A stretch of 32,000 bases of DNA from Nitrososphaerota archaeon (GTDB lineage: Archaea; Thermoproteota; Nitrososphaeria_A; Caldarchaeales; Calditenuaceae): contig JBEPYO010000001.1 in assembly GCA_041641295.1 (NCBI GenBank), forward strand, positions 14,574 through 46,573, written 5' to 3'. The notes under the pieces were generated by a model. It made no database searches, was not told the origin of the DNA, and saw nothing but the letters and a program-made list of their open reading frames with translations. Every line of letters starts with the position of its first letter. The stretch's first letter is position 1. The position numbers and the translations under genes were made by a program. Of this stretch, positions 6,348 to 32,000 are shown piece after piece.

Positions 6348-6353
6348 GAGGGG

Positions 6354-13791: not shown

Positions 13792-13820
13792 TCGATAAGC
13801 CTCATCAAACCCAACCACCT

Positions 13821-13892
13821 AGCCCGGGAGGGGATTCGAACCCCTGTAAAGCGGCTCTGCAGGCCGCCGCCTAGCCGCTCGGCCACCCGGGC
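13821..13892 (-). tRNA. tRNA-Cys (anticodon GCA)
   Basis: Reverse complement: GCCCGGG TG GCC GAGCGGCTA GGC G GCGGC CTGCAGA GCCGC TTTAC AGGGG TTCGAAT CCCCT CCCGGGC T. The U73 discriminator is as expected for tRNA-Cys. Confidence 0.9.
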
Positions 13893-13961
13893 CCAAAAGA
13901 AACCAACCCGAAGCTAAGTTAAAGTCTTTACCCCCATCATTAGACAGTAAACACCGCAATA

Positions 13962-13969
13962 GTTTATTT
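13962..13969 (+). promoter_or_regulatory. TATA-like box for tRNA-Leu
   Basis: GTTTATTT lies ~30 nt upstream of the tRNA 5' end at 13998. Confidence 0.35.
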
Positions 13970-13997
13970 CCTAGGCGCCCCCACACTACCACTTGGA

Positions 13998-14128
13998 GCG
14001 GGGGTGGCCGAGCCAGGTCAAAGGCGGCGGGCTTAAGATCTCGTGGAACGAGATAGGGAGACCCGCTCCCGTAGGCCAGAAATCAAATCGGGCGGAAGGG
14101 TTCGTGGGTTCGAATCCCACCCCCCGCA
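13998..14128 (+). tRNA. tRNA-Leu (anticodon UAA) interrupted by two introns
   Basis: Exons give GCGGGGG TG GCCGAGCCAGGTCAAAGGC G GCGGG CTTAAGA CCCGC TCCCGTAGGGGTTC GTGGG TTCGAAT CCCAC CCCCCGC A. There is a ~23-nt insert after position 37 (about 14038-14060) and a ~22-nt insert inside the variable arm (about 14076-14097). Confidence 0.85.
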
Positions 14129-16109: not shown

Positions 16110-17531
16110 TTATTCCACGCAGCAGCTCATGCGTGTGAGAGGCCTGAGGAACGATTGGGCGGCAAGTTTTATGACCTCGGCATATGTCGGAAAAACATGT
16201 ATTGTATCCACTATGTCCATCACTGTTCCGCCATGTTTCATATAGAGTGTTGCTTCAGTGATGAATTCTGCTGCGTTCGGTGAGAGTATGTGCATGCCCA
16301 GGACTCTTCCGTCGTTAGGACTTATGACAAGCTTCGCCAGACCCCTTCCACCGCCTATTCTAGCCTTGGCCACGTTTTCTAATCCCACAATCCTACACGA
16401 GCATGCCCCGAACTTCTCCACCACCTCCCTTTCAGTCAGTCCTACCATGCCAACCTGTGGTTCTGTGAAAACCACCACTGGTACAGTTGAATAGTCTATT
16501 ATGGAGGAGCCTTCTCTGACTATGTTGGATGCAGCGACGGCTCCCTCTCTAGCCGAGAGTGTTTCAAGCATCCATCGCTTGGAAACACAGTCGCCTGCAG
16601 CATAGATGCTGTGGTTGGTTGTGCGCATAGTCTCGTCAACCTTTATGAAGCCGCGTCCATCTGTCTCAACCCCCGCCACATCTAGGTTTAATTTGTCTGT
16701 GTTTGGTACTCTGCCTGTAGCCAGTAGTAGTGCATCAAATTCTACGGACTTAGGGCCCTCACTGGTTAATACCGTGGCACAGGCGTGGCCGTCATGTTTT
16801 GAAAGTTCTACTATACTAGCCTTCGTGATGATCTTCATCCCTTCACCCCTCAAAACCTCCGCAAGACTCTCAGATATATCGGGCTCCATCCCAGGGAGGA
16901 TCCTGTCTAAGACCTCTACTAACGTGACCTCACAGCCAATCCTCTGCATTGCCTGCCCTATCTCGAGTCCTACTGCTCCCCCACCCACCAGTAACAATCT
17001 CTCAGGCATGTCTTCTAAACTCCAAATAGTATCTGTCGTGTAGTATGTTACCTCTTCAAGGCCTTTAATGTTTGGTATTGCTGGTCTCGAACCCGTCGCT
17101 ATTAGGGCTTTATGGAAACCTATTTCCCTTGTGTTGTCGCCGGAAACTATTTGGAGGGTCCGTTTCGAGGTGAACGTAGCCCAGCCCTCGACAAACTCAA
17201 CATTACCATACTGCTGTAGAACCATCTCGTATTTTTCACGCCTCATTTCCTCTACGAACCTGCGGAGTGATTTCATGAGTTTTCTGAAGTCTAGGTCTGC
17301 TCCCTTGGGACTGACCCCCTCGAACAACACGCTATGTGATAGATGATAATGTTTGGCCGCCTCGATCAAGTATTTTGACGGGATGCATCCCACGTTGACG
17401 CATGTGCCACCCAAACTACCTGCCGACACCATCAAAATTTTCAGTTCACCGTTTGTGAGCTCACTCACTTTTATTGCAGCGGCGAAACCCGCCGCCCCCG
17501 CCCCAAGAATAACAAGGTCGTAACTACTCAT
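16110..17531 (-). CDS. merA: Mercuric reductase core (MerA without an N-terminal HMA domain); start moved to ATG 17531
   Basis: MSSYDLVILGAGAAGFAAA (FAD), redox-active GGTCVNVGCIPSK, NAD(P) site LLLVGGGAVGLE, and the tail VFPTYAEVIKLAAQSFLRPLTRMSCCVE with the vicinal C-terminal Cys pair diagnostic of MerA. Confidence 0.85.
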   Translation of the reverse strand: MSSYDLVILGAGAAGFAAAIKVSELTNGELKILMVSAGSLGGTCVNVGCIPSKYLIEAAKHYHLSHSVLFEGVSPKGADLDFRKLMKSLRRFVEEMRREKYEMVLQQYGNVEFVEGWATFTSKRTLQIVSGDNTREIGFHKALIATGSRPAIPNIKGLEEVTYYTTDTIWSLEDMPERLLLVGGGAVGLEIGQAMQRIGCEVTLVEVLDRILPGMEPDISESLAEVLRGEGMKIITKASIVELSKHDGHACATVLTSEGPKSVEFDALLLATGRVPNTDKLNLDVAGVETDGRGFIKVDETMRTTNHSIYAAGDCVSKRWMLETLSAREGAVAASNIVREGSSIIDYSTVPVVVFTEPQVGMVGLTEREVVEKFGACSCRIVGLENVAKARIGGGRGLAKLVISPNDGRVLGMHILSPNAAEFITEATLYMKHGGTVMDIVDTIHVFPTYAEVIKLAAQSFLRPLTRMSCCVE

Positions 17532-17552
17532 ATTCCCTTTGTAAAACATAAA

Positions 17553-17562
17553 GTATTTAAAA
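17553..17562 (-). promoter_or_regulatory. TATA-like box for merA
   Basis: The minus strand reads TTTTAAATAC, centred ~27 nt upstream of ATG 17531. This supports the shorter start. Confidence 0.4.
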
Positions 17563-17778
17563 CCTCTGGTAAAGATGCTTAACCTTTTTGAAATACTTGT
17601 AAAAATTTGCATTGGAAGAGTAACTTTGAGTTAACAACTCTTACAAGGTAGGGTTTTCCGCTAATGCTTTAACTCTTATCCTTCGGTTGGCTGTCTCTAC
17701 AATCTACTTCTCAGGATATTTCCATATTATAACGGAAGCGTTATATCCCACATATAATGACATTATGGTCGTAAGGTG

Positions 17779-18312
17779 ATGAATGGCTTGACTGAGCTTA
17801 ACGGCCTAAATCTGGAAAAGCTTGAGGAGCTTGTGAGAATAGTTGCTTCTCAGAAGGAGAAGGCTGAGGAACTCAATGTATGGAGGGCTAGAGTTAAGTG
17901 GACTGGAGGATTCCAAAGCAAGGCATACGTGAGGAACCACACCTTCATCATAGATGAGCCTGCTGATCTAGCGGGTGTAGACATGGCCCCCAACGCTGTT
18001 GAATATGTGCTGTCGGCACTGGGTGCATGCCTGACTGTAGGGTTTGTCCTAAATGCCACAAAGAGAAACGTCAAGATAGATGACCTAGAAATTAGCCTGG
18101 AGGGAAGGATAGACAATATACTTAATTTTCTGGGCTTGAGCGAGCAGGGTCATCCTGGATACCGTGAGATAAAGGCGAAACTATACGTTAGATCATCGGC
18201 CGATGCTAAAACCCTTGAAGAGATTTGGAAGAAGACGGTTGAGACATCTCCTGTGGGGAACACCCTCTCAAGAAACGTGAAGATAATTCCAGAACTATCT
18301 GTGGTGAGCTGA
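17779..18312 (+). CDS. OsmC/Ohr-family protein
   Basis: FIIDEPADLAGVDMAPNAVEYVLSALGACLTVGF and the C-terminal SPVGNTL region fit the OsmC-like fold pattern. Start at ATG 17779 or GTG 17776. Confidence 0.7.
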   Translation: MNGLTELNGLNLEKLEELVRIVASQKEKAEELNVWRARVKWTGGFQSKAYVRNHTFIIDEPADLAGVDMAPNAVEYVLSALGACLTVGFVLNATKRNVKIDDLEISLEGRIDNILNFLGLSEQGHPGYREIKAKLYVRSSADAKTLEEIWKKTVETSPVGNTLSRNVKIIPELSVVS

Positions 18313-18317: not shown

Positions 18318-19478
18318 ATGGGCCGGCTGTTTACTACAAGTGTTGTTGGAAGCTGGCCTAGGCCCCCGTGGCTGCTTGCAGAGCTGAGGAGAAAGAACAA
18401 GGGCGAGATAAGCTATGATGAGTTCAGTGCCATAGCCGACGAGGCTGTTTTGTTAGCCGTAAAATACCAAGAGGATGCGGGCATAGAGGTTTTGACTGAT
18501 GGGGAGCAACGTAGAGATAACTTCTACTCCTTTGTAGCGGACAAGCTAGAGGGAATAAAGCTCATGACGGTGGCCGAGGTGATGGACTTTGTAGAAGACA
18601 GCTCAAGATATGAGCAGCTTTTAAGAGCCCTAGATGTCCCAGCCTTCGCCATCAAAAGCCCAGTAGTTGTTGGACCTGTCAAGAAGAAGAGACCAATTGC
18701 TCTAGACGAGTTGGAGTTCCTCCGTAGACACACAAAACATGAGGTGAAGGTAACGCTCCCGGGGCCCTACATGCTCACCAGGGCGAGCTGGATAGACCCT
18801 GTCTCACGTGCAGCCTACTGGAATAGGGAGGAGCTTGCGAGGGAGTATGTTAGGCTGTTAAGGGAGGAGATAATCCAGCTAAGGGATGCCGGTGCGTCAT
18901 TCATCCAGCTCGATGAGCCCACATTGACAGAAGTTGTGTACGGCGAGGCGTCCAAGCAGACATTCATGTGCGCTGCCATCTTCTCAAAGATCGACCCGAA
19001 GGAGGAGCTGAACTTTGCAACCGAGCTGATAAACAAAACAGTTAAAGGAATTGACGGCGTCAGACTAGGGATCCACGTCTGCAGAGGAAACTGGAGCACA
19101 AGGGAGGAGGCATTGCTGAAAGGCGACTATAGGCCGCTAATCCCATACTTCCAAGAGATGAAGGTGAGGCAATTTGTTCTCGAATTCGCAACACAAAGGG
19201 CTGGAGAACTCTCAGTCTTTAAAGACGTTTCAGGCATAGAAGAACTTGGGTTGGGAGTAATTAATCCGAGAGTACGTGAAGTTGAAAGCCCAGACTCGAT
19301 AGTCAAGAAAGCCGAGGAGGCTGTCAAATACTTCGACCCGGATAAAATCTTTCTAAACCCAGACTGTGGCTTCGGAACATTTGCAGAATCCCCTGTAAAC
19401 ACACCAAAAACGGCATTTCAGAAGCTGAAAAACATGGTTGAGGCTGCCTCGATACTCCGAAAAAGATACGGCGGATAA
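18318..19478 (+). CDS. metE: Cobalamin-independent methionine synthase, short archaeal form (MetE C-terminal-domain type)
   Basis: TTSVVGSWPRPPWL, TDGEQRRDNF, IQLDEPTL, IHVCRGN (His/Cys Zn ligands), NPDCGF (Cys ligand). Confidence 0.8.
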   Translation: MGRLFTTSVVGSWPRPPWLLAELRRKNKGEISYDEFSAIADEAVLLAVKYQEDAGIEVLTDGEQRRDNFYSFVADKLEGIKLMTVAEVMDFVEDSSRYEQLLRALDVPAFAIKSPVVVGPVKKKRPIALDELEFLRRHTKHEVKVTLPGPYMLTRASWIDPVSRAAYWNREELAREYVRLLREEIIQLRDAGASFIQLDEPTLTEVVYGEASKQTFMCAAIFSKIDPKEELNFATELINKTVKGIDGVRLGIHVCRGNWSTREEALLKGDYRPLIPYFQEMKVRQFVLEFATQRAGELSVFKDVSGIEELGLGVINPRVREVESPDSIVKKAEEAVKYFDPDKIFLNPDCGFGTFAESPVNTPKTAFQKLKNMVEAASILRKRYGG

Positions 19479-19537: not shown

Positions 19538-20023
19538 TCAGGTTTTAGAAGTAGGTTGTTGCGGCGCTGTCAATTTAAAGGTGAAAACGCCCTTATCTGT
19601 GATGAGTGCTATGTTGTAGACTGTTCCGGGCTCCCAAGCAATCCCGATGTACAGATTTGTTATTCCGCGGGGAGGAATCACGCATTGCGAGCCAACTATG
19701 TATGAACATCTCCATCCCCCATAGGGGGCAAATACAGCCTCGCTCCCCCTAAATAACTGGGAGCTCGATAAAGGTTCAAACCTCAGCTCGACACCGTTCA
19801 CCTTGATGCTTTTAATCAAGACAGGCTCTACATGCTCGTTCGCCACTGCCAGAGATAGCTGCGAAAGACCTCTCGCAAAGTTGTATCCTTTGATATTTAG
19901 CGTCGTGGAAACAGTTGGACTGTATGGCTTCATAAAGTCCAGTATACCTATTGATACGACTACCAAGCCTAGAGCCGCGACCAGCATAAGGGCTAGTGAT
20001 GTCCGTCTTTGCGCGTCACCCAC
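19538..20023 (-). CDS. Membrane-anchored hypothetical protein (N-terminal TM + probable beta-rich ectodomain), last gene of the Fe-S/NrfD/cupredoxin cluster
   Basis: GTG start. MGDAQRRTSLALMLVAALGLVVVSIGIL anchor. Its start overlaps the upstream stop by 8 nt (GTGGGTGA). Confidence 0.4.
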   Translation of the reverse strand: MGDAQRRTSLALMLVAALGLVVVSIGILDFMKPYSPTVSTTLNIKGYNFARGLSQLSLAVANEHVEPVLIKSIKVNGVELRFEPLSSSQLFRGSEAVFAPYGGWRCSYIVGSQCVIPPRGITNLYIGIAWEPGTVYNIALITDKGVFTFKLTAPQQPTSKT

Positions 20024-20963
20024 GCGGCATCCCCTCCCGCCTCAGCCTGAGAATAGATCGGACAGTCCACAGCACTATCATCCAAGCCGTTACGACGACA
20101 GATGTGGCCAAGACGACCAAGACAGTATTTGCTCCCGCCTGAACGCCGACCAGCCTAGGGTCAGGCCACAGGTTCTCACCTCGAACGGATGTTTCAGAGA
20201 GATCGATTGGAAGCCGCGGTGGTGATGCAATAGTAGAGGTAATGGTGAGAGTTGCGTTCGCTGGCTTGAACCTTCCGCTTCCTCCAAAGACGGCTAAGAT
20301 TTGTCTTGGACCAATTTTTGGTGGCTTGTATTCCAAGGCGGCTATTCCATCTATGTTGGTAGGTATAGCCCCTATGCTCACATATCCTAGAGGGGTATAG
20401 TCTAGGAACTCGACTAGGATTCCTTGTACGGGTTGACCGTCCTCCGTCATAGCCTTGGCGGTGAGGAGATATATGCCGGGCTGACTCTCGTCGGCTAAAA
20501 TGGTCAGGCGTAAGGACTCGATGGATGTCTCGGTCTCCCTGACAACTAATACCCCGTTTTGAAGGTTCTCATGACCCCTACAGCGTAATATGCATCTAAT
20601 GCTGAATGCTCCGGGCTGGTTAATTGTCAGCTCTACAACCTTTTTCTCCTCCTCTCCGCTGAGTTCAACCTTTACACCAAATTTTTCAATCTCGATTATG
20701 TGGGGATTACCCATTTTCATGCCATGATCTCCGTACAAAAAGGTTATCCTAACCGTGTCTCCTTGGTTCACCTCTATCCTGAGTTCTGCTGAGCCGTTGA
20801 ACCCCATACTTGAGACGATTATTGTAAACTCCTTCACCGAGGGTTGAGTGTTCGAGCTTGACACCTCTATTTGGGCCACTGCCGTATGTGGTAGGTGTAG
20901 GGCTACGAGATACAGGCTACTCAACAGCATGATAATTGTGAGAAGAGTTGTAGACCTCCTCAT
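20016..20963 (-). CDS. Cupredoxin-like + Ig-like-domain protein with an N-terminal signal/anchor and a C-terminal TM; start moved to ATG 20963
   Basis: MRRSTTLLTIIMLLSSLYLVAL. Cupredoxin-type pattern: RIEVNQGDTVRITF...NPHIIEIEKFGV...PGAFSIRCILRCRGHENLQNGVLVV. Then a beta-rich segment and the TM VLVVLATSVVVTAWMIVLW. ATGA overlap with the NrfD-like stop at 20960-20963. Confidence 0.5.
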   Translation of the reverse strand: MRRSTTLLTIIMLLSSLYLVALHLPHTAVAQIEVSSSNTQPSVKEFTIIVSSMGFNGSAELRIEVNQGDTVRITFLYGDHGMKMGNPHIIEIEKFGVKVELSGEEEKKVVELTINQPGAFSIRCILRCRGHENLQNGVLVVRETETSIESLRLTILADESQPGIYLLTAKAMTEDGQPVQGILVEFLDYTPLGYVSIGAIPTNIDGIAALEYKPPKIGPRQILAVFGGSGRFKPANATLTITSTIASPPRLPIDLSETSVRGENLWPDPRLVGVQAGANTVLVVLATSVVVTAWMIVLWTVRSILRLRREGMPRG

Positions 20964-22903
20964 TTCAAGATCGCCTCCTCGATCTGCATGGCAAATCTCT
21001 TTAGTGCCTCCGCTCCGTAGTATCCAAGGATACTGACTTTGTAGTGGTTCTGCCACACCTCTAGCTTGGGCGGCGACGTTTTCTCATTTAGTAGGGCGAC
21101 GCTGCCCCTCGGAAGTTCGAATTTAGTCACGTTCGGCAAAATCGTCTCAGGAGGGCCTAACTTGTCGCCTATCCTCTGGATAAGGACTAGAACGGATACC
21201 GGCTCATCGTAGAGGGTTAGACTGCGTGTTGAGGGGTCATGGAATGCTAGAGATATTAGGGCTGCCTGCCGGTTGTATCTTATGCTAGTGAGTCTGGCTG
21301 AGCCCAGCTTTTGAAGGGCCTCCCTCCTGACTCTGAGTCCTAAGTCATTAAAAGCACTCATATCGGATGCGATCCCCAGGACACCCAGGCTTCTTCTTAA
21401 CGGCGTAGCGGCGCCTCTGCCGCTTGACAAAGCCTTTATGAGGCTCTTAAGCTGCGCGCCCCCAACAAGGCCTGCTACCAGCCCCACCGCTGCTACAGCG
21501 ACTGTCTTCATAGCACTCCTTCTAACTTCGATAGGCCTCTCAACCTGGGCTTCTGGATGTGGGACGATTAGTTTTAGAACTGGATAGGCAGAAGGCTCGG
21601 CAGCCAAGGCAGCCGGAGCCTGCTCATGGCCCACCGTCTCCCATATAGATACGATGGGGAAGAGCTTGGTGAAAACCAAGTAGATGAGCATGAAGAGTGA
21701 AAATGCGCCCGCGGTTATCGATAGCTCGACCCATGTGGGAACATATGTCCCCCAAGGATATGGGAGCTGAGGCACTGCTAGGCTGGGGACAACGATGTTC
21801 CACCTCTCTAACCACATGCCAATGTTGACTAGGATCGATGCAGCGAGGTAGCCCTTAATGTTGCGTGTGCCAGGGTAGGCGAGAAGGAAGGCCGGGACTA
21901 TGAGGCCGCCAACTATCTGTACCCAGAAGTATGGAGCATAGGAGCCCCAAAAGAGTGATGAGAGCCACACACCCTCAAGCTCTTTAGTGCCTAGATACTT
22001 GTAGCCGACCACCAAGTGTTCATTGATTGTCAGGTAGACGAGTATCAGAACTAGTGCGAGCATCAGTTTTGCCATTGTGTGTAGATGTTTTTCCGTGATA
22101 AACGCGTCTAGACCTAGAAGCTTTCTGACGAGGGCCATGATGATAATCACTGTTGCTACTCCTGAGAGGACGGCCCCAGCCACGAAGTATGGTCCGAAAA
22201 TTGTGCTGTTCCAGCCGACCCTCAACGTCATGGCAAAGTCCCAAGAGACAACTGTATGCACGGTTATCACCATGAATACTATTAGTATGGTGAGTATGCG
22301 CATGGCCTGCTCAAGTATTCTCCACTGTTCAGGCGTCCCCATCCAATTCAGAGACAGCAGGCTGTATAACCTTCTCCTCCATGATGATGCATCTTTCACA
22401 GAGTCTCTGAGTACTGCTATATCGGGAATCATCGGAACATACAGGTACAGAGTGGACGTTACGAAGTATGTTCCAATCGCTATGAAGTCCCATATTAGAG
22501 GCGACTGAATTCTTCCAAACATCAGTAAGTTCAATATCCGGTCCGGCCTGCCTAAGTCTATTAAAGGCATAAGCATGGCGACAAACAGTGAGGCAAAGGT
22601 TACGGCCTCCGCCATTCTTGTTATCGGGCGCCGCCAATCAGAGCCTGTCAGCCTGAGGATTGCAGAGATGAGGGCCCCTACGTGGCTTATTCCGATGAAG
22701 AAGACGAAGTTTATGATATAGAACCCCCAAACGACCGTTCTCAAGCCCGTAACTCCTAGACCTGTGGCAAGCTGTACGGACCAGGCGTAAACCCCCCAAG
22801 CCACCACAGCTAAGAGGGTGGCGAAGGCTACGTAGAAGAGGGTTCCATGACGCTGTACTGGCCTGATGAGAGCGTCAATCTTCAGATAGGTTGATGCGGT
22901 CAT
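20960..22903 (-). CDS. NrfD/PsrC/ActC-like polytopic quinone-interacting membrane subunit fused to a ~220-aa C-terminal extension
   Basis: Residues 1-~425: WGFYIINFVFFIGISHVGALISAILRL...RMAEAVTFASL...LIDLGRPDR... and about 10 hydrophobic helices, typical of the NrfD family. Residues ~426-647: linker, one extra TM (TVAVAAVGLVAGLVGGA) and an unassigned soluble domain. Confidence 0.8.
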   Translation of the reverse strand: MTASTYLKIDALIRPVQRHGTLFYVAFATLLAVVAWGVYAWSVQLATGLGVTGLRTVVWGFYIINFVFFIGISHVGALISAILRLTGSDWRRPITRMAEAVTFASLFVAMLMPLIDLGRPDRILNLLMFGRIQSPLIWDFIAIGTYFVTSTLYLYVPMIPDIAVLRDSVKDASSWRRRLYSLLSLNWMGTPEQWRILEQAMRILTILIVFMVITVHTVVSWDFAMTLRVGWNSTIFGPYFVAGAVLSGVATVIIIMALVRKLLGLDAFITEKHLHTMAKLMLALVLILVYLTINEHLVVGYKYLGTKELEGVWLSSLFWGSYAPYFWVQIVGGLIVPAFLLAYPGTRNIKGYLAASILVNIGMWLERWNIVVPSLAVPQLPYPWGTYVPTWVELSITAGAFSLFMLIYLVFTKLFPIVSIWETVGHEQAPAALAAEPSAYPVLKLIVPHPEAQVERPIEVRRSAMKTVAVAAVGLVAGLVGGAQLKSLIKALSSGRGAATPLRRSLGVLGIASDMSAFNDLGLRVRREALQKLGSARLTSIRYNRQAALISLAFHDPSTRSLTLYDEPVSVLVLIQRIGDKLGPPETILPNVTKFELPRGSVALLNEKTSPPKLEVWQNHYKVSILGYYGAEALKRFAMQIEEAILK

Positions 22904-23685
22904 ACAGAACCGGCACCCCTAGGCGGTAGATAGATCACGCGCGGCTCTGTGCCTAACTCTTCTTTCAACCTGAAGGGCGCCCTACCTTTAACGATCTCTG
23001 ACAGCCTGACAGTCTCATCGCCATTTGACACGACGTCTTCAGAGGCGTCTCCGAAGAATAAGGCCCTGTGTCCCGCCCTCGTACATGCCTCTACACAGGC
23101 GGGCAGTCTCCCCTCTAAAATCCTGTGCCTACACCATATACACTTTTCAACAACCCCACGCCTGTGGGGAATATTGTAGTCTGGGGAGTAGGGGGTGTTT
23201 GCTTCGTCTTCACTTTGTGGGGGGTCGAACCAGTTAAAGAAGCGGCGCTGGTAGGGGCATGCAGTTATGCATATACGGCATCCGATGCATCTCTCCTGAT
23301 CTATTAGGACTATATGGTCTTCTGAATAGAATGTTGCGCCTACCGGACATACTTTGGCACACGGGGCATTCTGGCAGTTCTGACAGAGCACTGGCAAAAA
23401 ATACCCATCCCTCTCAAACACCTCTATCCAAGGCTGTCGCCCGTTGTAGTTATGCTCTCCCCAAGCAGGAGGAACCCTCATCTCTTCCTGGCAGGCCTCA
23501 ACACATTTCATGCAGCCGTTACATCGATCCGTGTCTATGACGAATACCCACTTTCTCTCCTCTGCCCTTACCCTCGAAACCTCCAGCTCTGTTGGCTGAC
23601 TAGCCTCGGGAGTCGAGGCCGACGCTACAGTACCGGCAAGCGCCGATACTACTCCAGCTAAGAGTTCACGTCTCGAGATCTTCAC
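22900..23685 (-). CDS. NrfC/PsrB/DmsB-type four-cluster [4Fe-4S] ferredoxin subunit with a Tat signal; start probably GTG 23685
   Basis: MKISRRELLAGVVSALAG (twin-arginine). Cys groups CNGCMKCVEAC, CQNCQNAPCAKVCP, CIGCRICITACP and CIWCRHR...LPACVEAC. GGAGG lies 8 nt upstream of GTG 23685. ATGA overlap with the NrfD-like start at 22900-22903. Confidence 0.85.
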   Translation of the reverse strand: MKISRRELLAGVVSALAGTVASASTPEASQPTELEVSRVRAEERKWVFVIDTDRCNGCMKCVEACQEEMRVPPAWGEHNYNGRQPWIEVFERDGYFLPVLCQNCQNAPCAKVCPVGATFYSEDHIVLIDQERCIGCRICITACPYQRRFFNWFDPPQSEDEANTPYSPDYNIPHRRGVVEKCIWCRHRILEGRLPACVEACTRAGHRALFFGDASEDVVSNGDETVRLSEIVKGRAPFRLKEELGTEPRVIYLPPRGAGSV

Positions 23686-23801
23686 AGGCTCACCCTCCAA
23701 AACATGGATAGGCCTAGATATTCACCAGCGTGCGTGGCCGTAGGTTCTATGCGTCTTTGCCCCAACGGAAACGCTCCCATCAAAACTGCTGAGGAAATCA
23801 T
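23682..23801 (-). CDS. Speculative 39-aa small ORF coupled to the Fe-S subunit gene
   Basis: MISSAVLMGAFPLGQRRIEPTATHAGEYLGLSMFWRVSL. The ATG lies ~36 nt downstream of an A/T box (23831-23843, minus strand). Its TGA overlaps the GTG of the next gene (GTGA). Confidence 0.15.
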   Translation of the reverse strand: MISSAVLMGAFPLGQRRIEPTATHAGEYLGLSMFWRVSL

Positions 23802-23852
23802 AGTGAGAAGAATAGGAGTGATAATCAAACAATAATAAAAATTAGTGTGATG

Positions 23853-23859
23853 AAAAAAA
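23853..23859 (-). terminator. Oligo-T tract (T7 on the minus strand) downstream of the first cupredoxin gene
   Basis: A7 on the plus strand, 33 nt past the stop at 23892. Archaeal terminators are commonly oligo-T runs. It is followed by an A/T-rich box that could serve as an internal promoter. Confidence 0.3.
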
Positions 23860-23891
23860 GGTGTGGGAGACCTTGTCGAGTACACATCAAC

Positions 23892-24467
23892 CTACCCCTC
23901 TAATACGACCAAGTATCCAACCATGTATGCGTGATCTGCATCACAATCGTCTTTTTCATGATCAAATGGTATACCACATCTAAACTGGAACACTCCAGCT
24001 TTGTCGGCAACAAAGGACACCATCACGGTACGCTTAGCTTCGTCGGGCTGCTCCTCCTTCCCAGGTATCCTGCCTGTATCGACGCCAAAGTCTGCCAGAA
24101 CAAAGGAGTGCGCGTGGCTCCGCGGGTTCTTCACCGTCAGCTCCACCTTGTCACCCTTCCGCACAACTAGAACAGGCGGCTCCCATCTATGGAACTCGCC
24201 CGTAAGCTCCTCTTCCTCATTCACCTCTTGTACTATCTTACCCTCACCCAGTACGATTGTAAACTTTTGAGTCTTCGGGCCTACCTTTGCCGTTAATTCG
24301 TCAAGAGTTACAGCCTGCTCGTTCAGCTGTCCAGACAGCCTATTGAGCTGGCCTGATATTGCATCGAGCTGAGCCGTTGTAGACGACGTTTGTCCGACGA
24401 CTAGTGCTACCGCTGCGACGGCGATGACCAAGCTGACAAGACTGAGAACCAAGTACGCTCTGCTCAT
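23892..24467 (-). CDS. Membrane-anchored cupredoxin-like protein with a coiled-coil linker and a CuA-like C...CxxxHxxM motif; start probably ATG 24467
   Basis: MSRAYLVLSLVSLVIAVAAVALVVG anchor. AQLDAISGQLNRLSGQLNEQAVTLDEL heptad-like linker. VVRKGDKVELTVKNPRSHAHSFVLADFGV and GVFQFRCGIPFDHEKDDCDADHAYMVGYLVV. The track start (GTG 24530) would add 21 residues. Confidence 0.6.
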   Translation of the reverse strand: MSRAYLVLSLVSLVIAVAAVALVVGQTSSTTAQLDAISGQLNRLSGQLNEQAVTLDELTAKVGPKTQKFTIVLGEGKIVQEVNEEEELTGEFHRWEPPVLVVRKGDKVELTVKNPRSHAHSFVLADFGVDTGRIPGKEEQPDEAKRTVMVSFVADKAGVFQFRCGIPFDHEKDDCDADHAYMVGYLVVLEG

Positions 24468-24518
24468 GACCACATTCCCTCGCACATCTTGAACCGCTAA
24501 CACGGAAAAATGCGTTTC

Positions 24519-24613
24519 TAGGGAATACACTATGCAGGACCAAACGCAAACCCTATTCCCTACCAGAAATGCAACGGAAATTTTCTATTGTCGTAGGGAA
24601 AGAAAAATTTCCG
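24519..24613. promoter_or_regulatory. Cluster of inverted repeats in the divergent intergenic region (candidate operator sites)
   Basis: TAGGGAATA (24519-24527) with its perfect complement TATTCCCTA (24554-24562), and a third TAGGGAA at 24594-24600. CGGAAATTTTC (24575-24585) faces GAAAAATTTCCG (24602-24613). A related ACGGAAAAATGCG is at 24502-24514. Confidence 0.3.
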
Positions 24614-24723: not shown

Positions 24724-25540
24724 GTGACCTTCTCTGAGCTCGAGGAAGCCTCAAGAAGATAAGGGGCAAACTGAGGATGATTTTTACCGCGTCCTCTGCC
24801 ACCCGCTTAGGCGAAAGATCATTGTTCTGCTCCACGAAAGAATAGAGCTGTCATATTCTGAGATGTTAAGAGAGCTTGCGGTGGAGGAGGGTCTCTTCAA
24901 CTTTCATCTAAGATCTATGCGTAAACTCATAGACATAACAGAGGATGGAAAATATGTCCTATCAAACATGGGAAGGCTTGCATACGACGTCATCACCAAG
25001 GTGCAGTCCAGCTTAGCCACCGTGGACACGCTCTTTCCGAAGCCAGCCCTCACCCACAACATATTGGCGAGAAGAGTCGCAGCCTTCCTTATCGACGGTC
25101 TAATCTTCTTCGTATTCAGCGGAGTATGGTTAGACCCATTCCTCTGGAACGCTCTTATGCAATCGATAATGCACATCACCGAGCTGAGAGTTCTCCACCC
25201 CTGGCTATTCCACCCAGAGCATATCCCTGAGATCGGGGGATTGATCTTTCGAGTAGTTGCAGCCTACTCACATATCTTCTTCGCCATATTCATCACGCTC
25301 ACACTACTGGATGCATACAAGGGTCAAACCCCGGGACGCTATCTTCTCGGGATAAGAGTGGTAACAATAGCTAATCGAAGGCTGGATCTAATAGAAGCAG
25401 GGATAAGAAACATTGGGAAGGTCTTTCTACTCCCGCTGGACCTAATCATAGGCCTTCTCTTCTTTTACAAGCGCGGCTACATAAGATTCTTCGACTACTA
25501 CACAAAAAGCAAAGTGGAGATGGTGAAAGGAGGTCTCTAG
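24724..25540 (+). CDS. ArsR-type winged-HTH fused to an RDD-family membrane domain; N-terminus interrupted by a frame change near 24760
   Basis: The in-frame region upstream of ATG 24863 (no canonical start) reads ...EDDFYRVLCHPLRRKIIVLLHERIELSYSEMLRELAVEEGLFNFHLRSMRKL, an ArsR-like HTH. Downstream, ARRVAAFLIDGLIFFVF...GQTPGRYLLGIRVV...LLPLDLIIG is the RDD pattern. GTG 24724 opens MTFSELEEASRR, then TAA (24760-24762) in the -1 frame relative to the main ORF. Confidence 0.55.
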
Positions 25541-27202: not shown

Positions 27203-27832
27203 TTAGTTTGTTTGTTTTTGTTTGAGTTTCTTGATTCTGGTGCGATACTTTTCTCTATAGAGTTGGAGGCATGAACGGCAACATAAGAAGGCGTATGCGC
27301 CTCCAGCCCTAAATGTAAGCGGCTCCCCTCTGATGGGTCCGCCACAGTAGTCACACTTCAGCTCGACCACTACCCCTTCTTCCAGTGGGAAACCTGGCTC
27401 ATCCCTCAAACTACGGATAATCATGATTACATTGTTTATCTCAAGTCCTTCGATGCGTGCTAGCTCTTCCTCGAACCGCTGGAATCCAACAAGGTCCTTG
27501 CAGGCAACCTTGATCAGTAGGTTACTTTCCCCACTTATGAGAAAGACACCACGTACCTGCTGCATAGCTAATATGCGTTCAATTATTTCTCTTGCCGTAT
27601 TGCCTTTCACCTTGGCGAATATTAGGCCGGCGGCCCCCCTGCCGAACGACTCAAGGTCTAGAACTGGAATGAAGCCTTTGAGCAATCCAGCCTTCTTGAG
27701 GCGCTCGACCCTATATGCAATTGTAGGCGTTGTTGTTCTCAGGGTGCGGGCTATTTGTCTATATGATGCCCGCGCATCCCGCATGAGAGCCTGCAGTATT
27801 GCTATGTCTAACTTGTCAAGAGTTAGGGGCAT
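27203..27832 (-). CDS. Lrp/AsnC-type HTH regulator with a C-terminal TRASH metal-binding domain (CopR-like); start moved to ATG 27832
   Basis: MPLTLDKLDIAILQALMRDARASYRQIARTLRTTTPTIAYRVERLKKAGLLKGF (Lrp HTH), an RAM-like middle part, and C-terminal CDYCGGPIRGEPLTFRAGGAYAFLCCRSCLQLY (CxxC...CxxxC TRASH pattern). Confidence 0.75.
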   Translation of the reverse strand: MPLTLDKLDIAILQALMRDARASYRQIARTLRTTTPTIAYRVERLKKAGLLKGFIPVLDLESFGRGAAGLIFAKVKGNTAREIIERILAMQQVRGVFLISGESNLLIKVACKDLVGFQRFEEELARIEGLEINNVIMIIRSLRDEPGFPLEEGVVVELKCDYCGGPIRGEPLTFRAGGAYAFLCCRSCLQLYREKYRTRIKKLKQKQTN

Positions 27833-27853
27833 GCACAACATCATCACTATGGG

Positions 27854-27864
27854 GATATATATGG
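27854..27864 (-). promoter_or_regulatory. TATA-like box for the Lrp-TRASH regulator gene
   Basis: The minus strand reads CCATATATATC, centred ~27 nt upstream of ATG 27832. Confidence 0.4.
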
Positions 27865-27894
27865 TTGCGGTACTTTTCATCCATAGAGCCCTGC

Positions 27895-28842
27895 TTATTC
27901 TGAAGCCATCTCCTCTACAAAATTCCATTCAAAGACCCTGTCAACACCGTACAACCCTTTCAGGATAAGTCTGATAGAGCGGGGTTGGTAATCTAATGGT
28001 GGGAATGTTAGTATCCCGTCTCTATGATGACCGCCCGGAGGAGATCCATTCCATGACTTTGGATAATAAATTCTACCATTATCGTCCTGAAGTATGGCGA
28101 CAGAGAGCATGTCCCAATATAGGTCACCTACGTGAGTATCCATTTTAATATTGAAGGAGAGTTCTTTGCCTACCGAGTATGGGAGTGGGGTCACCTCTAC
28201 TGTCAGCCCATTTGCCTCACTGACTTGCTTGGGGAGCATTATCACGTTGCTGCTCTCCTGCTCTGATGACATGGCGACAGTACCTAGAATTCCCCAGCCC
28301 AGCATAAACGAGCCTATTATAACAGAAGTTACTAGTGCCGTATTTTTAGCCTTAGCCATATTTATACGCATCAATCCAGCTAGGATACCCTTGTCTTCAT
28401 AGAGTCTGTGCCTCTGTATCAGGTTTAGCATGAAGGTGATGCCAACAACATTTGATAGCAGCCCTACGACGATGAGGTATGGTTGGTAGGCTGTAAGGAA
28501 TATGGCCGCGGCCGTAAACCCTACCAGGGGCAAAACATCAGTTATGTGGTGGATGCAGCAAGCTAACATGGCGGTTGTTGAAACCCCTCCCGTTATGGAT
28601 ACGCAGGCAGTGCCTTCGTGTAGGGTTGCGGCTCTGTGTCTCGCGTAGGAGAAGAGTGAGACTTGGACACCAAATCCCGCCAACAATGGAATCATCAGAG
28701 GCGAGAGGAGAATAAACTGTTCAACGGCGGCCGCTAGAGACTGTGCAATAACCATTATGAAGAAATAGACGGTGAACAAAGCCCCGGCAGACAGCAAGCC
28801 GATGGCTACGTGCCTGTTCAAATAATTTGGCTTAGCTACCAT
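27895..28842 (-). CDS. Uncharacterised membrane protein with an intramembrane CC-HH motif and a C-terminal beta-rich ectodomain carrying GGHH
   Basis: About 5-6 hydrophobic helices. GGVSTTAMLACCIHHITDVLPLVGFTAAA carries a vicinal Cys pair followed by PLV..GF, reminiscent of MerT/MerF helices. C-terminal VEVTPLPYSVGKELSFNIKMDTHVGDL...SPPGGHHRDGILTFPPL. GGAGG lies 9 nt upstream of the ATG. Confidence 0.45.
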   Translation of the reverse strand: MVAKPNYLNRHVAIGLLSAGALFTVYFFIMVIAQSLAAAVEQFILLSPLMIPLLAGFGVQVSLFSYARHRAATLHEGTACVSITGGVSTTAMLACCIHHITDVLPLVGFTAAAIFLTAYQPYLIVVGLLSNVVGITFMLNLIQRHRLYEDKGILAGLMRINMAKAKNTALVTSVIIGSFMLGWGILGTVAMSSEQESSNVIMLPKQVSEANGLTVEVTPLPYSVGKELSFNIKMDTHVGDLYWDMLSVAILQDDNGRIYYPKSWNGSPPGGHHRDGILTFPPLDYQPRSIRLILKGLYGVDRVFEWNFVEEMASE

Positions 28843-28912
28843 GGGGCATCCCCTCCAAAGAGATACCTTGTACTGCGCAACAATAGTCTGAAGACAGGCT
28901 GGGCAGCATCAT
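28832..28912 (-). CDS. Speculative 26-aa ORF with a vicinal Cys pair upstream of, and overlapping, the membrane-protein gene
   Basis: MMLPSLSSDYCCAVQGISLEGMPHGS. AGGAGG (28924..28919) lies 6 nt upstream of ATG 28912. The stop TAA (28834..28832) overlaps the downstream start by 11 nt. Confidence 0.15.
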   Translation of the reverse strand: MMLPSLSSDYCCAVQGISLEGMPHGS

Positions 28913-29017
28913 GCATTACCTCCTTTCATACATTAAATCCTTAAACTAAAAGATATGCCTTCCTTGTTACAAATAAAAAGTGTGAGACTCGCATACTTTA
29001 CATGTGTAAAGACGGAT

Positions 29018-29028
29018 GTATTTATTGG
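29018..29028 (+). promoter_or_regulatory. TATA-like box for the cupredoxin-like gene of the cop locus
   Basis: GTATTTATTGG is centred ~26 nt upstream of ATG 29049. It lies inside the over-extended track ORF. Confidence 0.4.
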
Positions 29029-29048
29029 AGCAGGTCTTATACTATTTG

Positions 29049-29522
29049 ATGAAAGGTAAGAAAACAAAACGAAGGCAGCGAGGCCTCCTTGATGCATTGA
29101 AGGCAGCTCTTCCACTTATTCTGTTTATTATCTTCTTGGGTTGGCTGCTCTGGCCTCAGACACCACAGTCATACTCACAGTCGCAGATAACGTCGCAGTC
29201 CCCGGCACAGTCTGGAGCTGGCAGGGTAGTAGAAGTCCAAGCAGATATGGCTGGCTTTAGACCAAATATAATCCGAGCAAGGGTGGGAGAGAAACTGACT
29301 GTAAGACTTGTCAGTCTAGACAATGAGTACCACGTTGATGGAGGGGGCAAGCACCAATTTGCCATCGACGAGATGGGTGTGAATATAGTCGCGCCTCCCT
29401 TAGGCGCAAGTGAAGCTTCCTTCACACCTACTCAGGCAGGAACCTACGTATTTTACTGCGATATCTGTTGCGGCGGCCGTAATAACCCGTCAATGAGGGG
29501 CCAGTTAATAGTCGAGAGTTAG
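29049..29522 (+). CDS. Membrane-anchored cupredoxin-like protein with an atypical Cys-rich site (CDICCGG), start moved to ATG 29049
   Basis: MKGKKTKRRQRG + TM LPLILFIIFLGWLLW. FRPNIIRARVGEKLTVRLVSLDNEYHVDGGGKHQFAIDEMGV ... GTYVFYCDICCGGRNNPSMRGQLIV has cupredoxin topology and a MxGxLxV tail. Asn sits where the second His ligand is expected. Confidence 0.5.
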   Translation: MKGKKTKRRQRGLLDALKAALPLILFIIFLGWLLWPQTPQSYSQSQITSQSPAQSGAGRVVEVQADMAGFRPNIIRARVGEKLTVRLVSLDNEYHVDGGGKHQFAIDEMGVNIVAPPLGASEASFTPTQAGTYVFYCDICCGGRNNPSMRGQLIVES

Positions 29523-29698
29523 AAACGACTTCACGATTGATCGGTCTACTGCGGGTCACGTATTAAAAATCCGCCTAATAGGTTCCTCTCTTAAATGTGT
29601 ATTCGTATAGTCTGATACATGTTAGATTTTTAGTCCCCATTCTTTACATTCGTAAAGAGCTAGCTTTTTACTCGACTGTGCTCAATATTGTGGTGAAG

Positions 29699-29917
29699 AT
29701 GTTCGGGTTCGGGAAAGCTAAGGATCCTGTGTGTGGCATGAGCGTAGAAAAGAAGAAAGCGATCAAGAGAATTGTCGGAGGTGTTGAGTATTATTTTTGT
29801 AGCGAGCATTGTGCAAATGAATTTGAAAACAAGCATGGGGGGTCAGTTGAACTTGAAGAGGACGAGCTGCACAGCCACGGTGGACATAGAGGGCACCATC
29901 ATACGGGCTGTTGTTGA
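29699..29917 (+). CDS. YHS/TRASH-domain metal-binding protein with a His-rich, Cys-terminated tail (CopM/CopT-like); start moved to ATG 29699
   Basis: MFGFGKAKDPVCGMSVEKKKAIKRIVGGVEYYFCSEHCANEF (DPVCGM...YYFCS..C), then ELHSHGGHRGHHHTGCC. Confidence 0.75.
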   Translation: MFGFGKAKDPVCGMSVEKKKAIKRIVGGVEYYFCSEHCANEFENKHGGSVELEEDELHSHGGHRGHHHTGCC

Positions 29918-29972
29918 TAACTGGTGCGGCTTACAAGACTTTTTGGACGTATCTCAGTAGAGGTGTAATTTT

Positions 29973-32000
29973 GTGAAGGAGAAGAAAATAGACCTGCAGA
30001 TTGGTGGAATGCACTGCGCCTCATGCGCTCAGACGATAGAGAAGGCTCTAAGAGGCTTAGAAGGAGTGATAGATGTGAGTGTTAACTTCAATGCTGCTAA
30101 AGCTTACGTCGTGTATGACCCGGGTAAAGTGCACCTCTCTGACTTGAAGAGGATTATAAGTGATGTGGGGTATAGAGTTCTCACAAATAAGGTTACCTTA
30201 AAGATTGAGGGGATGACTTGCGCCTCCTGCGTCCAGAAGGTTGAGAATGCGCTCAGAAATGTGGATGGAGTCTTTGATGCTACGGTAAATTTGGCCTTGG
30301 GTAAGGCAACAGTCGAATACGCATCTGACGTTAAAATTTCGGAGATGGTTAAAGCGGTCAGGGAGGTAGGTTATGAGGCGTCGGAGGCTGTTGAGGCAGA
30401 GCTGACGATTGACAGGGGAAAGCTTGAGAGGAGGAAGGAGATAAGACGGCAGACAATCAACCTTGCCCTTGCAACTCCACTAGCGTTGATAGTTATGCTG
30501 GGAGAGTTCCGCATGTATTGGCTGAACTATTTTTATGTTCCCGAGTTTATGGAGAATAAATTCTTCCTCCTTGCTATCACTTCTATAGTAGTGTTTGGTC
30601 CTGCTAGGCAGTTCTTTGTTAACTCCTTTAGAGGGCTGATGCACGGCGCAACGGACATGAACCTTCTCTACGCCACAGGTATAGGCGCTGCATACTCAGT
30701 CAGCGCTTTCAGTACATTCTTCCCCTTCGGGGGTGGGCTCCCAAGCGTCTGGTTTGAGGCAGCAGCCCTTCTAACAGCCTTCATAGTCCTAGGACGCTTC
30801 CTAGAGGCTATAACGCGTGGAAGAACCTCAGAGGCCATCAGGAGGCTCATGGAGATTAAGCCTAAGACTGCGAGGGTGATCCGGGATGGTGAAGAGGTGG
30901 AGATATCAGCGGATGATGTTCAGATCGGGGATGTAGTCTTAGTGAGGCCAGGTGAAAGGATTCCCGTAGACGGTATAGTGATTGAAGGATACTCCTCCGT
31001 AGATGAGTCCATGATCACGGGGGAAAGTATGCCAGTGGACAAGAAGGTAGGTGATGAGGTTATAGGTGGAACGGTGAACAAGGCAGGCTTTCTCAAGTTT
31101 AGGGCAACTAAAGTTGGTAAGGATACCGCTTTAGCACAAATTATAAAGCTTGTTGAGCAGGCTCAGACCTCTAAGCTCCCAATTCAGAGGCTGGCAGACT
31201 GGGTTGCAGGAAACTTCATCTTCGCCATACACGTTTTAGCTCTGATAACGTTTCTCTTCTGGTTCTTCATTGGCTATGAAGCATTCTTCGTACCTAAGGG
31301 CGAGGAGATCTTTACTGGGTTCTGGTACCGCGTCGTTCCCCAAGCCTCTCCAGCCACACTCGCCCTGCTTATCTCAATAGCTGTACTAGTCATCTCATGC
31401 CCATGCGCCGTGGGCCTCGCCACTCCCTCAGCTGTTATGATGGGAACAGGCAAGGCGGCGGAGAACGGGATACTGATAAGAAGTGGTGAAGCCCTAGAAA
31501 TGGCCCATAAGCTTGACGTCATCATCTTCGATAAGACAGGTACTCTAACTAAAGGGGAGCCGTCAGTAACCGATGTAGTGCTAAAGGCAGCACCAGCTAT
31601 ACGCGCCAACCCACATCCTCGTGACGAGAGATGGCTGCTCTTGATGGCGGCTATTGCTGAGAAGAGGTCGGAGCACCCGCTAGCGAAGGCAATTGTGAAA
31701 AGGGCTAGGGAACTTGGTCTCGACATACCAGACCCAGAGTCATTTGAGGCTATACCGGGGCAGGGGGTCCAAGCAGCATACAATGGAAAGACAATCCTTC
31801 TAGGCAACAGAAAACTGATGACCAGCAAGGGAATAAGGATAGACGATCTGGAGGAGAAGATAGCAGCCCTGGAGGACGAGGGGAAGACAGTTATGATCCT
31901 CTCTTATGATGGCGAGGCCTGCGGAGTTATAGCGGTCGCAGACACTCTTAAGGAACACTCTGCAGAAGCCGTTAATATTATTCAGGAGATGGGCATCGAA
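29973..32000 (+). CDS. copA: Copper-translocating P1B-type ATPase, N-terminal 676 aa (partial, continues beyond the right edge; absent from the ORF track)
   Basis: Manual translation from GTG 29973 (GAGGTG lies 7 nt upstream): [26 protein letters not shown]... plus a second HMA domain, [23 protein letters not shown]-region ITGESMPV, the CPC motif [12 protein letters not shown] and the phosphorylation site [10 protein letters not shown]. Open to the window end. Confidence 0.9.

Follow-up and report, generated by a model that had tools for sequence, protein, structure and literature searches.

In a 32,000-nucleotide stretch of DNA from a Nitrososphaerota archaeon of the order Caldarchaeales (assembly GCA_041641295.1, contig JBEPYO010000001.1, positions 14,574 to 46,573; hereafter the window, whose own numbering is used unless another locus is named), we analyzed a cluster of five minus-strand genes which, on balance, probably encodes a haem- and molybdenum-free quinol:cupredoxin oxidoreductase of the membrane, in effect a "mini alternative complex III". 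Such an activity had been suggested in a preliminary description of the same DNA and is supported here, with the role of the complex, the metals it holds and the way in which electrons run through it being those predicted from sequence. The five genes encode an anchored cupredoxin (cup1, 23892-24467, ATG start, 191 amino acids [aa]), an iron-sulfur (Fe-S) protein (22900-23685, GTG start with a GGAGG just before it, 261 aa), an NrfD-family membrane protein (20960-22903, 647 aa), a protein combining a cupredoxin domain, an immunoglobulin (Ig)-like domain and a C-terminal anchor (cupIg, 20016-20963, 315 aa), and a small anchored protein (the fifth gene, 19538-20023, 161 aa).

All five open reading frames (ORFs) are present on the minus strand as had been described, and the genes called independently in the NCBI and JGI records of this contig agree with them. 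The overlaps can be read directly from the sequence: the stop of the Fe-S gene and the start of the NrfD gene meet in an ATGA at 22900-22903 (GTATGACC), the NrfD stop and the cupIg start meet in another at 20960-20963 (AAATGAGG), and cupIg overlaps the fifth gene by 8 nt at 20016-20023 (GTGGGTGA). Translational coupling is limited to these last four genes. A minus-strand spacer of 206 bp (23686-23891) separates cup1 from the Fe-S gene, with a T7 run about 35 nt past the stop codon of cup1, an AT-rich stretch beyond it and, just before the GTG at 23685, the GGAGG; the spacer may serve as terminator and promoter. Because of this spacer, with its T7 run and AT-rich stretch, cup1 may be carried on a separate transcript.

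The assignment of the Fe-S and membrane proteins to the NrfC and NrfD types, proposed earlier, is borne out by Pfam scores above the cut-offs. The membrane protein matches PF03916 over residues 55-377 (118.1 bits versus a cut-off of 25.8, E = 8e-34), and the Fe-S protein matches Fer4_11 (60.5 bits versus 26.2, E = 2e-16) as well as related families. Compared with all PDB sequences, the NrfD protein gives strong matches only to ActC subunits of alternative complex III (ACIII), from four structures and with E-values between 8e-71 and 2e-63, namely 6f0k_C (8e-71) followed by 6lod_C, 6btm_C and 8k9e_C; ActF is a weak match, and PsrC is absent among the matches at E = 1e-3. What had been put forward as an analogy to ACIII is therefore actual homology, with ActC as the closest solved relative. 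An identity as PsrC, of polysulfide reductase, was rejected in view of this result, with all four ActC chains below E = 1e-63, and of the lack of a MopB gene in the window.

The NrfD protein is 39.6% identical to Rhodothermus marinus ActC over 396 aligned residues. In ActC, the quinol site involves His139, Ser164, Asp169 and Asp253, and Arg395 is a proposed gate (PMC8076601). Three of these four site residues (Ser164, Asp169 and Asp253) and the gate arginine are kept in the window protein, as S134, D139, D222 and R367. The ActC-like membrane domain, delimited by PF03916 and the PDB matches and predicted to bind quinol, spans aa 1 to about 430 (21614-22903, minus strand). It is followed by a C-terminal extension (20960-21613, minus strand; aa ~431-647) with one more predicted transmembrane (TM) helix and a domain of about 155 aa that has no Pfam family. 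By comparison with the topology of ActC (PMC8076601), this last domain would lie outside the membrane. The extension, of about 215 aa, is confined to the "long" forms of Caldarchaeales and Bathyarchaeia. In a related Caldarchaeales metagenome-assembled genome (MAG; locus L008, 8001-9880), NrfD is split over two ORFs, of 416 aa and 238 aa, so that the extension stands alone, either through a frameshift or as a sign of a separable extension subunit.

The Fe-S protein (22900-23685) is predicted to be a Tat-exported four-cluster subunit of the NrfC/PsrB/ActB2 type, with an SRRELL motif and 16 cysteines in four complete motifs. Its residues 44-253 align to residues 796-1022 of ActB, that is, to the C-terminal B2 half (6f0k_B, E = 3e-26). 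Judged by these alignments, the Fe-S/NrfD pair appears to form an ActB2/ActC-like quinol module on the outer membrane face. Among the NCBIfam models, the best match of the Fe-S protein is DsrO (188.7 bits, cut-off 200) and that of the membrane protein is DsrP (104.7 bits, cut-off 350), both below cut-off; QrcC (135.9 versus 400) and QrcD (59.2 versus 570) fall far below theirs.

The candidate exit subunit is cupIg, whose structural model comprises a signal or anchor helix, a cupredoxin domain at aa 42-142 (20538-20840, minus strand), an Ig-like domain at aa 150-245 (20229-20516, minus strand) and a C-terminal TM helix at aa 278-310 (20034-20132, minus strand), a conserved anchor that is followed by a basic tail. 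The cupredoxin domain, modelled with moderate confidence (predicted local distance difference test [pLDDT] 75-84), carries the site His88, Cys124-x3-Cys128-x2-His131-x3-Gln135. The Ig-like domain, of the Big_1 type, has a pLDDT of 85-90, weak Big_1 and Big_3_5 matches and homologs with PF02369. With Foldseek, the best single-domain match of the N-terminal domain is the CuA domain of Thermus ba3 (2cua_A, TM-score 0.65, root-mean-square deviation 3.2 Å, 26% identity), and NirK was matched too. The profile of this domain finds the cupredoxin domain of NirK (6tfd, E = 1.6e-4) with H88 and C124 placed on ligand positions, and its matches to CuA domains are weak (E ~0.15).

A word-indexed search with cupIg returned 10 relatives, and an exhaustive profile search was needed to recover the whole family. 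Conservation was assessed in 108 sequences, comprising 107 representatives of 50%-identity clusters and the window protein: His88 is found in all 108, Cys124 in 106, Cys128 in 107 and Gln135 in 81; at position 131, 62 sequences have His and 44 have Met. The anchor is also present in 79 of the 107 representatives, together with a cupredoxin domain, and its hidden Markov model (HMM) finds a cupIg-type anchor beside NrfD in many loci. Because the Cys/His conservation is strict and Met is the sole alternative to one His, we read this pattern as the signature of a metal site, for which copper would be the likeliest metal in a cupredoxin fold. The motif resembles the CuA motif Cys-x3-Cys-x3-His-x2-Met without matching it: both have a His...Cys-x3-Cys...His loop, and the span from the first Cys to the axial residue is the same. 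With two cysteines at CuA-like spacing, the cupIg site is not a classical blue-copper site.

The cup1 protein consists of an N-terminal TM helix, a long helical stalk and a cupredoxin domain at about aa 64-190, and its AlphaFold model has a pLDDT of 92.5. Foldseek matched it to nitrosocyanin (TM-score 0.76), to the type-1 copper domain of NirK and to the CuA domain of NosZ. In addition, when compared with solved cupredoxins, the family profile matched the extra domain of Hyphomicrobium NirK (E = 2e-16) and nitrosocyanin (6e-14), with His120 and Cys164 on canonical ligand positions, and most of the 66 homologs carry PF13473. Its putative metal ligands would be His120, Cys164, His179 and Met182, and the loop holds one more cysteine, Cys175; in the family alignment His120, Cys164 and His179 are invariant and Cys175 nearly so, whereas the axial position 182 is variable. 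The motif Cys164-x10-Cys175-x3-His179-x2-Met182 resembles the CuA set without matching it, its tail from Cys175 onwards being like the second half of the CuA motif. The 14-residue loop between Cys164 and His179 sets cup1 apart from known cupredoxins, on whose nitrosocyanin and NirK type-1 members it otherwise superposes. From profiles and model together, cup1 is predicted with high confidence to have a cupredoxin fold. Models and profiles therefore back the earlier view of both ORFs as cupredoxin-like, in fold as well as in conserved Cys/His ligands.

The absence of conventional partners from the window, as had been described, was confirmed by a six-frame ORF scan and by MopB probes. No CxxCH motif occurs in any ORF of at least 60 aa in the six frames of the window, which was the part of the source genome searched for partners, and the MopB probes, validated as PF00384, PF04879 and PF01568, returned noise (E of at least 0.47). 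The sole ORF of more than 650 aa in the window encodes a POR-type 2-oxoacid oxidoreductase. Neither DsrM, DsrK, DsrJ or other dsr genes nor nos genes are found among the called genes of the window, and a second PF03916 gene (ActF-like) is found neither there nor in the 22-kb locus L001.

To place the cluster among its relatives, we surveyed loci with related NrfD genes. A search of 5.8 billion proteins recovered thousands of NrfD relatives, a scan of one genome per GTDB species gave 80 loci with flanks, and 82 unique loci, with flanks of about 8 kb per side, were classified with HMMs of the cupIg modules and the MopB probe; ORFs were called greedily by length, so that mis-calls are possible in high-GC contigs. 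In 53 loci (type A), a partner with Ig-like domain and C-terminal anchor adjoins or is fused with NrfD; none of them has a MopB-like ORF and five have a multihaem ORF (at least three CxxCH) in the flanks. In the 27 type-B loci a genuine MopB gene is adjacent (27/27), accompanied in 25 by multihaem ORFs, mostly pentahaem and tetrahaem, and the Ig-anchor partner is not found in any of the 27. Two loci on short contigs (L043 and L077) belong to neither class, both without MopB and one (L043) with a multihaem ORF. The absence of MopB seen in the window thus extends to the orthologous clusters. Chance neighbourhood of cupIg was rejected because of its ATGA coupling to NrfD, its conservation in 53 loci and the fusion of cupIg-type partners to NrfD in some bacteria.

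The N-terminal module of the type-A partner varies. It is a cupredoxin in 14 loci (three Caldarchaeales, two Bathyarchaeia, three Thaumarchaeota, five Chloroflexota and Symbiobacterium) and a monohaem CxxCH cytochrome c in nine, from Chloroflexota and Acidimicrobiia; one of the 14 cupredoxin partners (L017) has a cytochrome c in addition. The other 30 are of other or unclassified type, and include one whose DOMON domain passes the Pfam cut-off (L019, E = 7e-13) and, in Terriglobia, NrfD-Ig fusions followed by multihaem genes. Among cupIg homologs from Thaumarchaeota, the Cys-Cys spacing is 3-6 residues. A stand-alone small cupredoxin gene lies beside seven of the 14 cupredoxin-type loci, compared with none of the nine cytochrome-c-type and one of the 27 type-B loci; these proteins are cup1-like in Caldarchaeales and Chloroflexota, and of the plastocyanin family in Thaumarchaeota. 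In a rough neighbour-joining tree, the Chloroflexota proteins of cupredoxin, cytochrome c plus cupredoxin, and cytochrome c types are neighbours, and R. marinus ActC is a distant outgroup to a clade of types A and B. Downstream genes vary by lineage (TIG-domain, EB_dh/DOMON, PQQ-like propeller and cytochrome c proteins, and response regulators).

The family is thus not specific to archaea but is also found in Chloroflexota, Symbiobacterium, Actinomycetota and other bacteria. As to conservation of the quintet, its core of Fe-S protein, NrfD and a redox module joined to Ig and anchor is kept, but cup1 and the fifth gene are lineage-restricted. Copper instead of haem would describe one variant of a modular family, in which some relatives have a monohaem cytochrome c or DOMON module in place of the cupredoxin. 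The fifth gene (19538-20023), which is coupled to cupIg, encodes a small, N-terminally anchored product with homologs in Caldarchaeales, a weakly similar homolog at the equivalent position in Bathyarchaeia (pairwise E = 6e-5) and no match in Pfam and NCBIfam scans.

Further variants were observed among the surveyed loci. The type-B set occurs in Acidobacteriota, Calditrichia, KSB1, Nitrospirota and Ignavibacteriales (L027, L036, L039, L051, L065, L066, L068, L071, L081, L082 and others), in the order pentahaem protein (~175 aa), genuine molybdopterin oxidoreductase containing an Fe4S4 domain (~825 aa), Fe-S protein, NrfD, a TM ORF of about 80 aa and tetrahaem protein (~420 aa), and its NrfD proteins are 45-52% identical to that of the window. 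In two Actinomycetota partners (L041, 4912-6291; L061, 3546-4808), the C-terminal region past the Ig domain and TM helix is weakly like the PSCyt1 Planctomycete cytochrome C domain (E = 0.04) and has no CxxCH; it may be a haem-less relic or another cofactor site. In Thermoplasmata/Methanomassiliicoccales partners (L005, 6208-7230; L018, 9050-10264), the slot of the redox module holds an N-terminal module that matches no family with confidence. Its conserved motif, Gly-Cys-x-Cys-His (CVCH, CFCH), differs from the canonical haem c site; the L005 locus adjoins Rieske/cytochrome b, Ccm and TatAC genes. In a Thaumarchaeota locus (L046, 10573-14734), the cluster runs into two EB_dh genes (ethylbenzene-dehydrogenase gamma-like, of the haem b-type DOMON kind) and a PQQ-repeat beta-propeller gene, whose products could be partners or electron donors.

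These data can be combined into a working scheme for the quinol:cupredoxin oxidoreductase. The ActC-like NrfD protein would bind and oxidise quinol at a site on the outer face, and the electrons would pass along the four Fe-S clusters of the Tat-exported ActB2-like subunit to a copper centre in the cupredoxin domain of cupIg, which the Ig-like domain and the C-terminal TM helix would hold to the complex. From there they might move on to the separately anchored cup1 and then to a copper-accepting terminal enzyme, for example a haem-copper oxidase. The soluble domains are all predicted to lie on the outer face, given the Tat signal, the N-terminal anchors and the C-terminal anchor with its basic tail. 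Cupredoxin, cytochrome c and DOMON are extracytoplasmic domain types that each have electron-transfer members, and of the arguments for a role of the cupIg slot in electron transfer, their interchange there is the strongest. As cupredoxins have potentials far above those of quinols, the transfer from quinol to copper would be downhill; we infer the direction from these general redox potentials and from the relationship with ACIII. Subunit assembly, copper occupancy and nuclearity, proton translocation and the terminal acceptor are likewise predictions of the scheme. With the gate arginine and polar residues kept, proton coupling would be allowed, and proton pumping is unproven even for ACIII (PMC13059093).

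A broader proposal, which we regard as possible rather than probable, is that the window cluster is the first example of a large, hitherto overlooked family of three-subunit respiratory complexes, each with an ActB2-like Fe-S subunit, an ActC-like quinol subunit and an Ig-anchored exit subunit in which copper, haem c and haem b (DOMON) have been swapped between lineages. The archaeal form, free of haem and molybdenum, would then contain a new copper centre, CuA-like with two cysteines and variable in His/Met, and could provide a proton-motive link from quinol to blue copper proteins in archaea without c-type cytochromes.

Comparison with known systems places the cluster nearest to ACIII (ActABCDEF), which transfers electrons from quinol to cytochrome c, HiPIP or auracyanin. 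Besides the relationship of NrfD to ActC and of the Fe-S subunit, with its predicted position on the outer face, to the B2 half of ActB, the two have in common the proposed job of passing electrons from quinol to a periplasmic one-electron carrier. Chloroflexus ACIII, for example, reduces the blue copper protein auracyanin. However, the window has no counterpart of the MopB-like ActB1, the pentahaem ActA, the monohaem ActE, ActD or the second NrfD-like subunit ActF. Moreover, ActB is a fusion of B1 and B2, whereas the 261-aa Fe-S protein aligns just to the B2 segment, and the exit subunit made of cupredoxin, Ig and anchor has no counterpart in ACIII. The system misses four of the five defining features of ACIII and should not be filed as such; it is best described as an ACIII-like quinol oxidoreductase variant in the NrfD family with a new kind of exit subunit.

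QrcABCD and the type-B systems also contain a dimeric redox module of the NrfC/NrfD type with a quinone site on the outer face, and the type-B NrfD proteins form one clade within the same group as type A in the rough tree. They differ in that type B has a genuine molybdopterin subunit (PF00384, PF04879, PF01568) and multihaem cytochromes and never the Ig-anchor partner, and in that the window, besides its low QrcC and QrcD scores, has no QrcA-type haem gene and no MopB-like QrcB gene. DsrMKJOP is similar to the extent that DsrO and DsrP are the best NCBIfam models for the two proteins, and orphan DsrO homologs beside NrfD genes have been noted earlier, with "function not clear" (PMC10504309). 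Nevertheless, the scores are under the curated cut-offs, dsrM, dsrK and dsrJ are missing from the window, and the partners are predicted copper proteins; an identity as DsrOP was therefore rejected. In contrast to the CuA domains of oxidases and NosZ, cup1 and cupIg are not part of an oxidase or an N2O reductase. A further comparison, made here by description, is with NosGH of the clade II nos clusters, a putative menaquinol dehydrogenase of the NrfCD type that works with cytochromes c (NosC1/C2) and NosZ. NosGH resembles the window system as an Fe-S/NrfD-type quinol dehydrogenase without MopB that supplies a copper enzyme, but it belongs to a nos cluster, and the called genes of the window include no nos gene.

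Several observations weigh against a quinol:cupredoxin oxidoreductase. Neither cupredoxin is recognised by Pfam from its own sequence, since the N-terminal domain of cupIg gave no match above cut-off and cup1 scores 24 bits with Cupredoxin_1, for which the cut-off is 27. The cupIg site is non-canonical, with two cysteines, a His one residue nearer than in CuA and Met in its place in 44 of the 108 sequences; the metal held there might not be copper, or the centre might be of another type. In the quinol site, His139 of ActC is replaced by Asp116. In ActB, the cluster adjacent to the quinol site is of the [3Fe-4S] type (PMC8076601), whereas the window Fe-S protein keeps all 16 cysteines and is predicted to hold four [4Fe-4S] clusters. 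In addition, cup1 is absent from many cupredoxin-type loci and possibly transcribed separately; given the 206-bp spacer and this patchy distribution, it is possibly a chance neighbour of the cluster. Lastly, no terminal oxidase or reductase gene was found in the window, and none is consistently linked in the related loci.

The surroundings of the cluster were also examined. Divergent from cup1 is a gene for an RDD-family membrane protein (24863-25540, plus strand; PF06271, E = 2e-12), which we regard as context only. Its counterpart in archaeon HR01 (L003, 5687-6433) adds HTH_20 and DUF7347 domains, pointing to a regulator tethered to the membrane and kept beside the cluster in Caldarchaeales, and the window protein may likewise be an associated regulator or accessory protein; in Thaumarchaeota, a plastocyanin-family protein gene occupies this position. 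On the other side lie genes for a pyridine-nucleotide disulfide oxidoreductase (16110-17612, minus strand), read as MerA- or dihydrolipoamide-dehydrogenase-like, an OsmC-family protein (17776-18312, plus strand) and a Meth_synt_2 protein like cobalamin-independent methionine synthase (18318-19478, plus strand), and the OsmC and Meth_synt_2 pair adjoins the cluster in HR01 too. A copper-homeostasis island occupies 27203-32000, at 3-8 kb from the cluster. It comprises genes for a regulator of the AsnC type whose C-terminus is a TRASH domain (27203-27928, minus strand), an overlapping 315-aa membrane protein with no family match (27895-28842, minus strand), a third cupredoxin, which is above the Pfam cut-off for Cupredoxin_1 (29016-29522, plus strand), a YHS-domain protein (29597-29917, plus strand) and, as the last gene, an HMA-domain P-type ATPase, cut short by the end of the window.

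At the opposite end of the window, the POR-type protein is a single polypeptide of 1213 aa like 2-oxoacid:ferredoxin oxidoreductases (1028-4669, plus strand; TPP_enzyme_C, POR and DUF6537 domains), and the G+C content in sliding windows is 0.43-0.44 over this region (1-5000) compared with 0.50-0.54 over 5001-14000. Database labels of the nearest relatives read Caldarchaeum, Caldarchaeales or Nitrososphaerota. The protein most similar to NrfD, at 91% identity and encoded on a 3.7-kb contig, bears the NCBI label "Thermosphaera sp.", whereas all other close relatives are Caldarchaeales or Nitrososphaerota; faulty binning or taxonomy of that MAG is the probable cause.

The main rival of the quinol-to-copper reading is the same complex run in reverse, as a cupredoxin:quinone oxidoreductase that takes electrons from an extracytoplasmic donor, such as Fe(II), a further copper protein or a dehydrogenase of the periplasm, and passes them to the quinone pool, either conserving energy as Qrc does or carrying out reverse electron flow at the expense of the proton motive force. 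We hold this to be a minor but serious possibility: NrfCD modules work either way, QrcABCD reduces menaquinone and is electrogenic (PMC13059093), the two proteins show sub-threshold similarity to QrcC and QrcD, and the EB_dh/DOMON and PQQ-type propeller proteins of the Thaumarchaeota locus L046 are possible donors. Nonetheless, quinone reduction would be uphill from typical cupredoxin potentials, ActC as the closest solved relative oxidises quinol, and no conserved donor enzyme is linked across the loci. A conventional module of the molybdoenzyme or Dsr type, with its partner (for example a Psr/Ttr/Arr-like MopB protein or DsrMKJ) encoded elsewhere and the cupredoxin genes unrelated to it, seems to us unlikely. 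It could account for DsrO (188.7 bits) and DsrP being the best NCBIfam models, for the annotators' label "molybdoenzyme membrane anchor subunit" of the membrane protein and for the genuine MopB and multihaem cytochromes of the type-B sister loci, and the 32-kb window is a small field in which to meet an unlinked gene of a genome with a contig of at least 1.26 Mb. Yet both Dsr models stay below their curated cut-offs (188.7 versus 200 and 104.7 versus 350), the window lacks DsrM/K/J, MopB and CxxCH genes, and MopB, which is directly adjacent in all 27 type-B loci, occurs in none of the 53 partner loci within about 8 kb on either side; in addition, cupIg is ATGA-coupled to NrfD and its relatives are fused to NrfD in some bacteria.

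Two further readings concern the cupredoxins themselves. Given the nearby island with its AsnC/TRASH, Cupredoxin_1, YHS and HMA P-type ATPase genes, the complex might serve copper homeostasis, by quinone-linked Cu(I) oxidation or Cu(II) reduction at the cell surface, with cupredoxins that handle copper rather than electrons. We judge this very improbable, as the island lies beyond four unrelated genes on mixed strands, the HR01 cluster stands beside the same OsmC and MetE genes with no copper ATPase within 8 kb, and relatives have a cytochrome c or DOMON domain where the window protein has its cupredoxin, which agrees with electron transfer rather than the handling of copper. We consider it about as improbable that the cupredoxin-like domains are metal-free structural or adhesive beta-sandwiches and that the Fe-S/NrfD pair directly serves a soluble substrate or another partner. 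The weak or absent Pfam matches of cup1 and cupIg would agree with this reading, as would the roughly 30 of 53 partners that have no recognised redox module, some being just Ig and anchor, and the nearby Ig and TIG domains, which are typical surface modules. However, His88, Cys124 and Cys128 are near-invariant in the 108 sequences with Met the only alternative to His131, the ligand positions of both proteins align with known copper ligands, and a CxxCH cytochrome c domain sits in the same slot in relatives.

With regard to novelty, the characterised NrfD-family complexes (Psr, Nrf, Ttr, Dms, Arr, Sre, Soe, Hyd-2, Qrc, Nhc, Mcc, DsrMKJOP and ACIII) have a molybdopterin, [NiFe] or haem partner, and a review of the family names no copper-linked or partner-less class (PMC8076601). 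In agreement with the preliminary description, which had not recognised a described complex here, we found no account of a copper-linked NrfD complex in the open-access literature, subscription journals being outside the scope of that search. If the copper-only partnership is true, the cluster would represent a new class in the NrfD family, and cupIg may contain a new type of cupredoxin metal centre. With about three subunits, it would also be a minimal system in which to ask whether ActC-type subunits pump protons, a question that is open for ACIII (PMC13059093). A cupredoxin-type cluster (L056-type) is present in a MAG assigned to Symbiobacterium thermophilum. This species has cultured strains, and experiments would be feasible if one of them carries the cluster. 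The swaps of cupredoxin, cytochrome c and DOMON in one slot would provide a clear natural case of modular redox-protein evolution. For the copper-based electron transport chains of Nitrososphaerota and related archaea, the complex, if it works as proposed, would be a second route from the quinol pool to blue copper carriers besides Rieske/cytochrome b.

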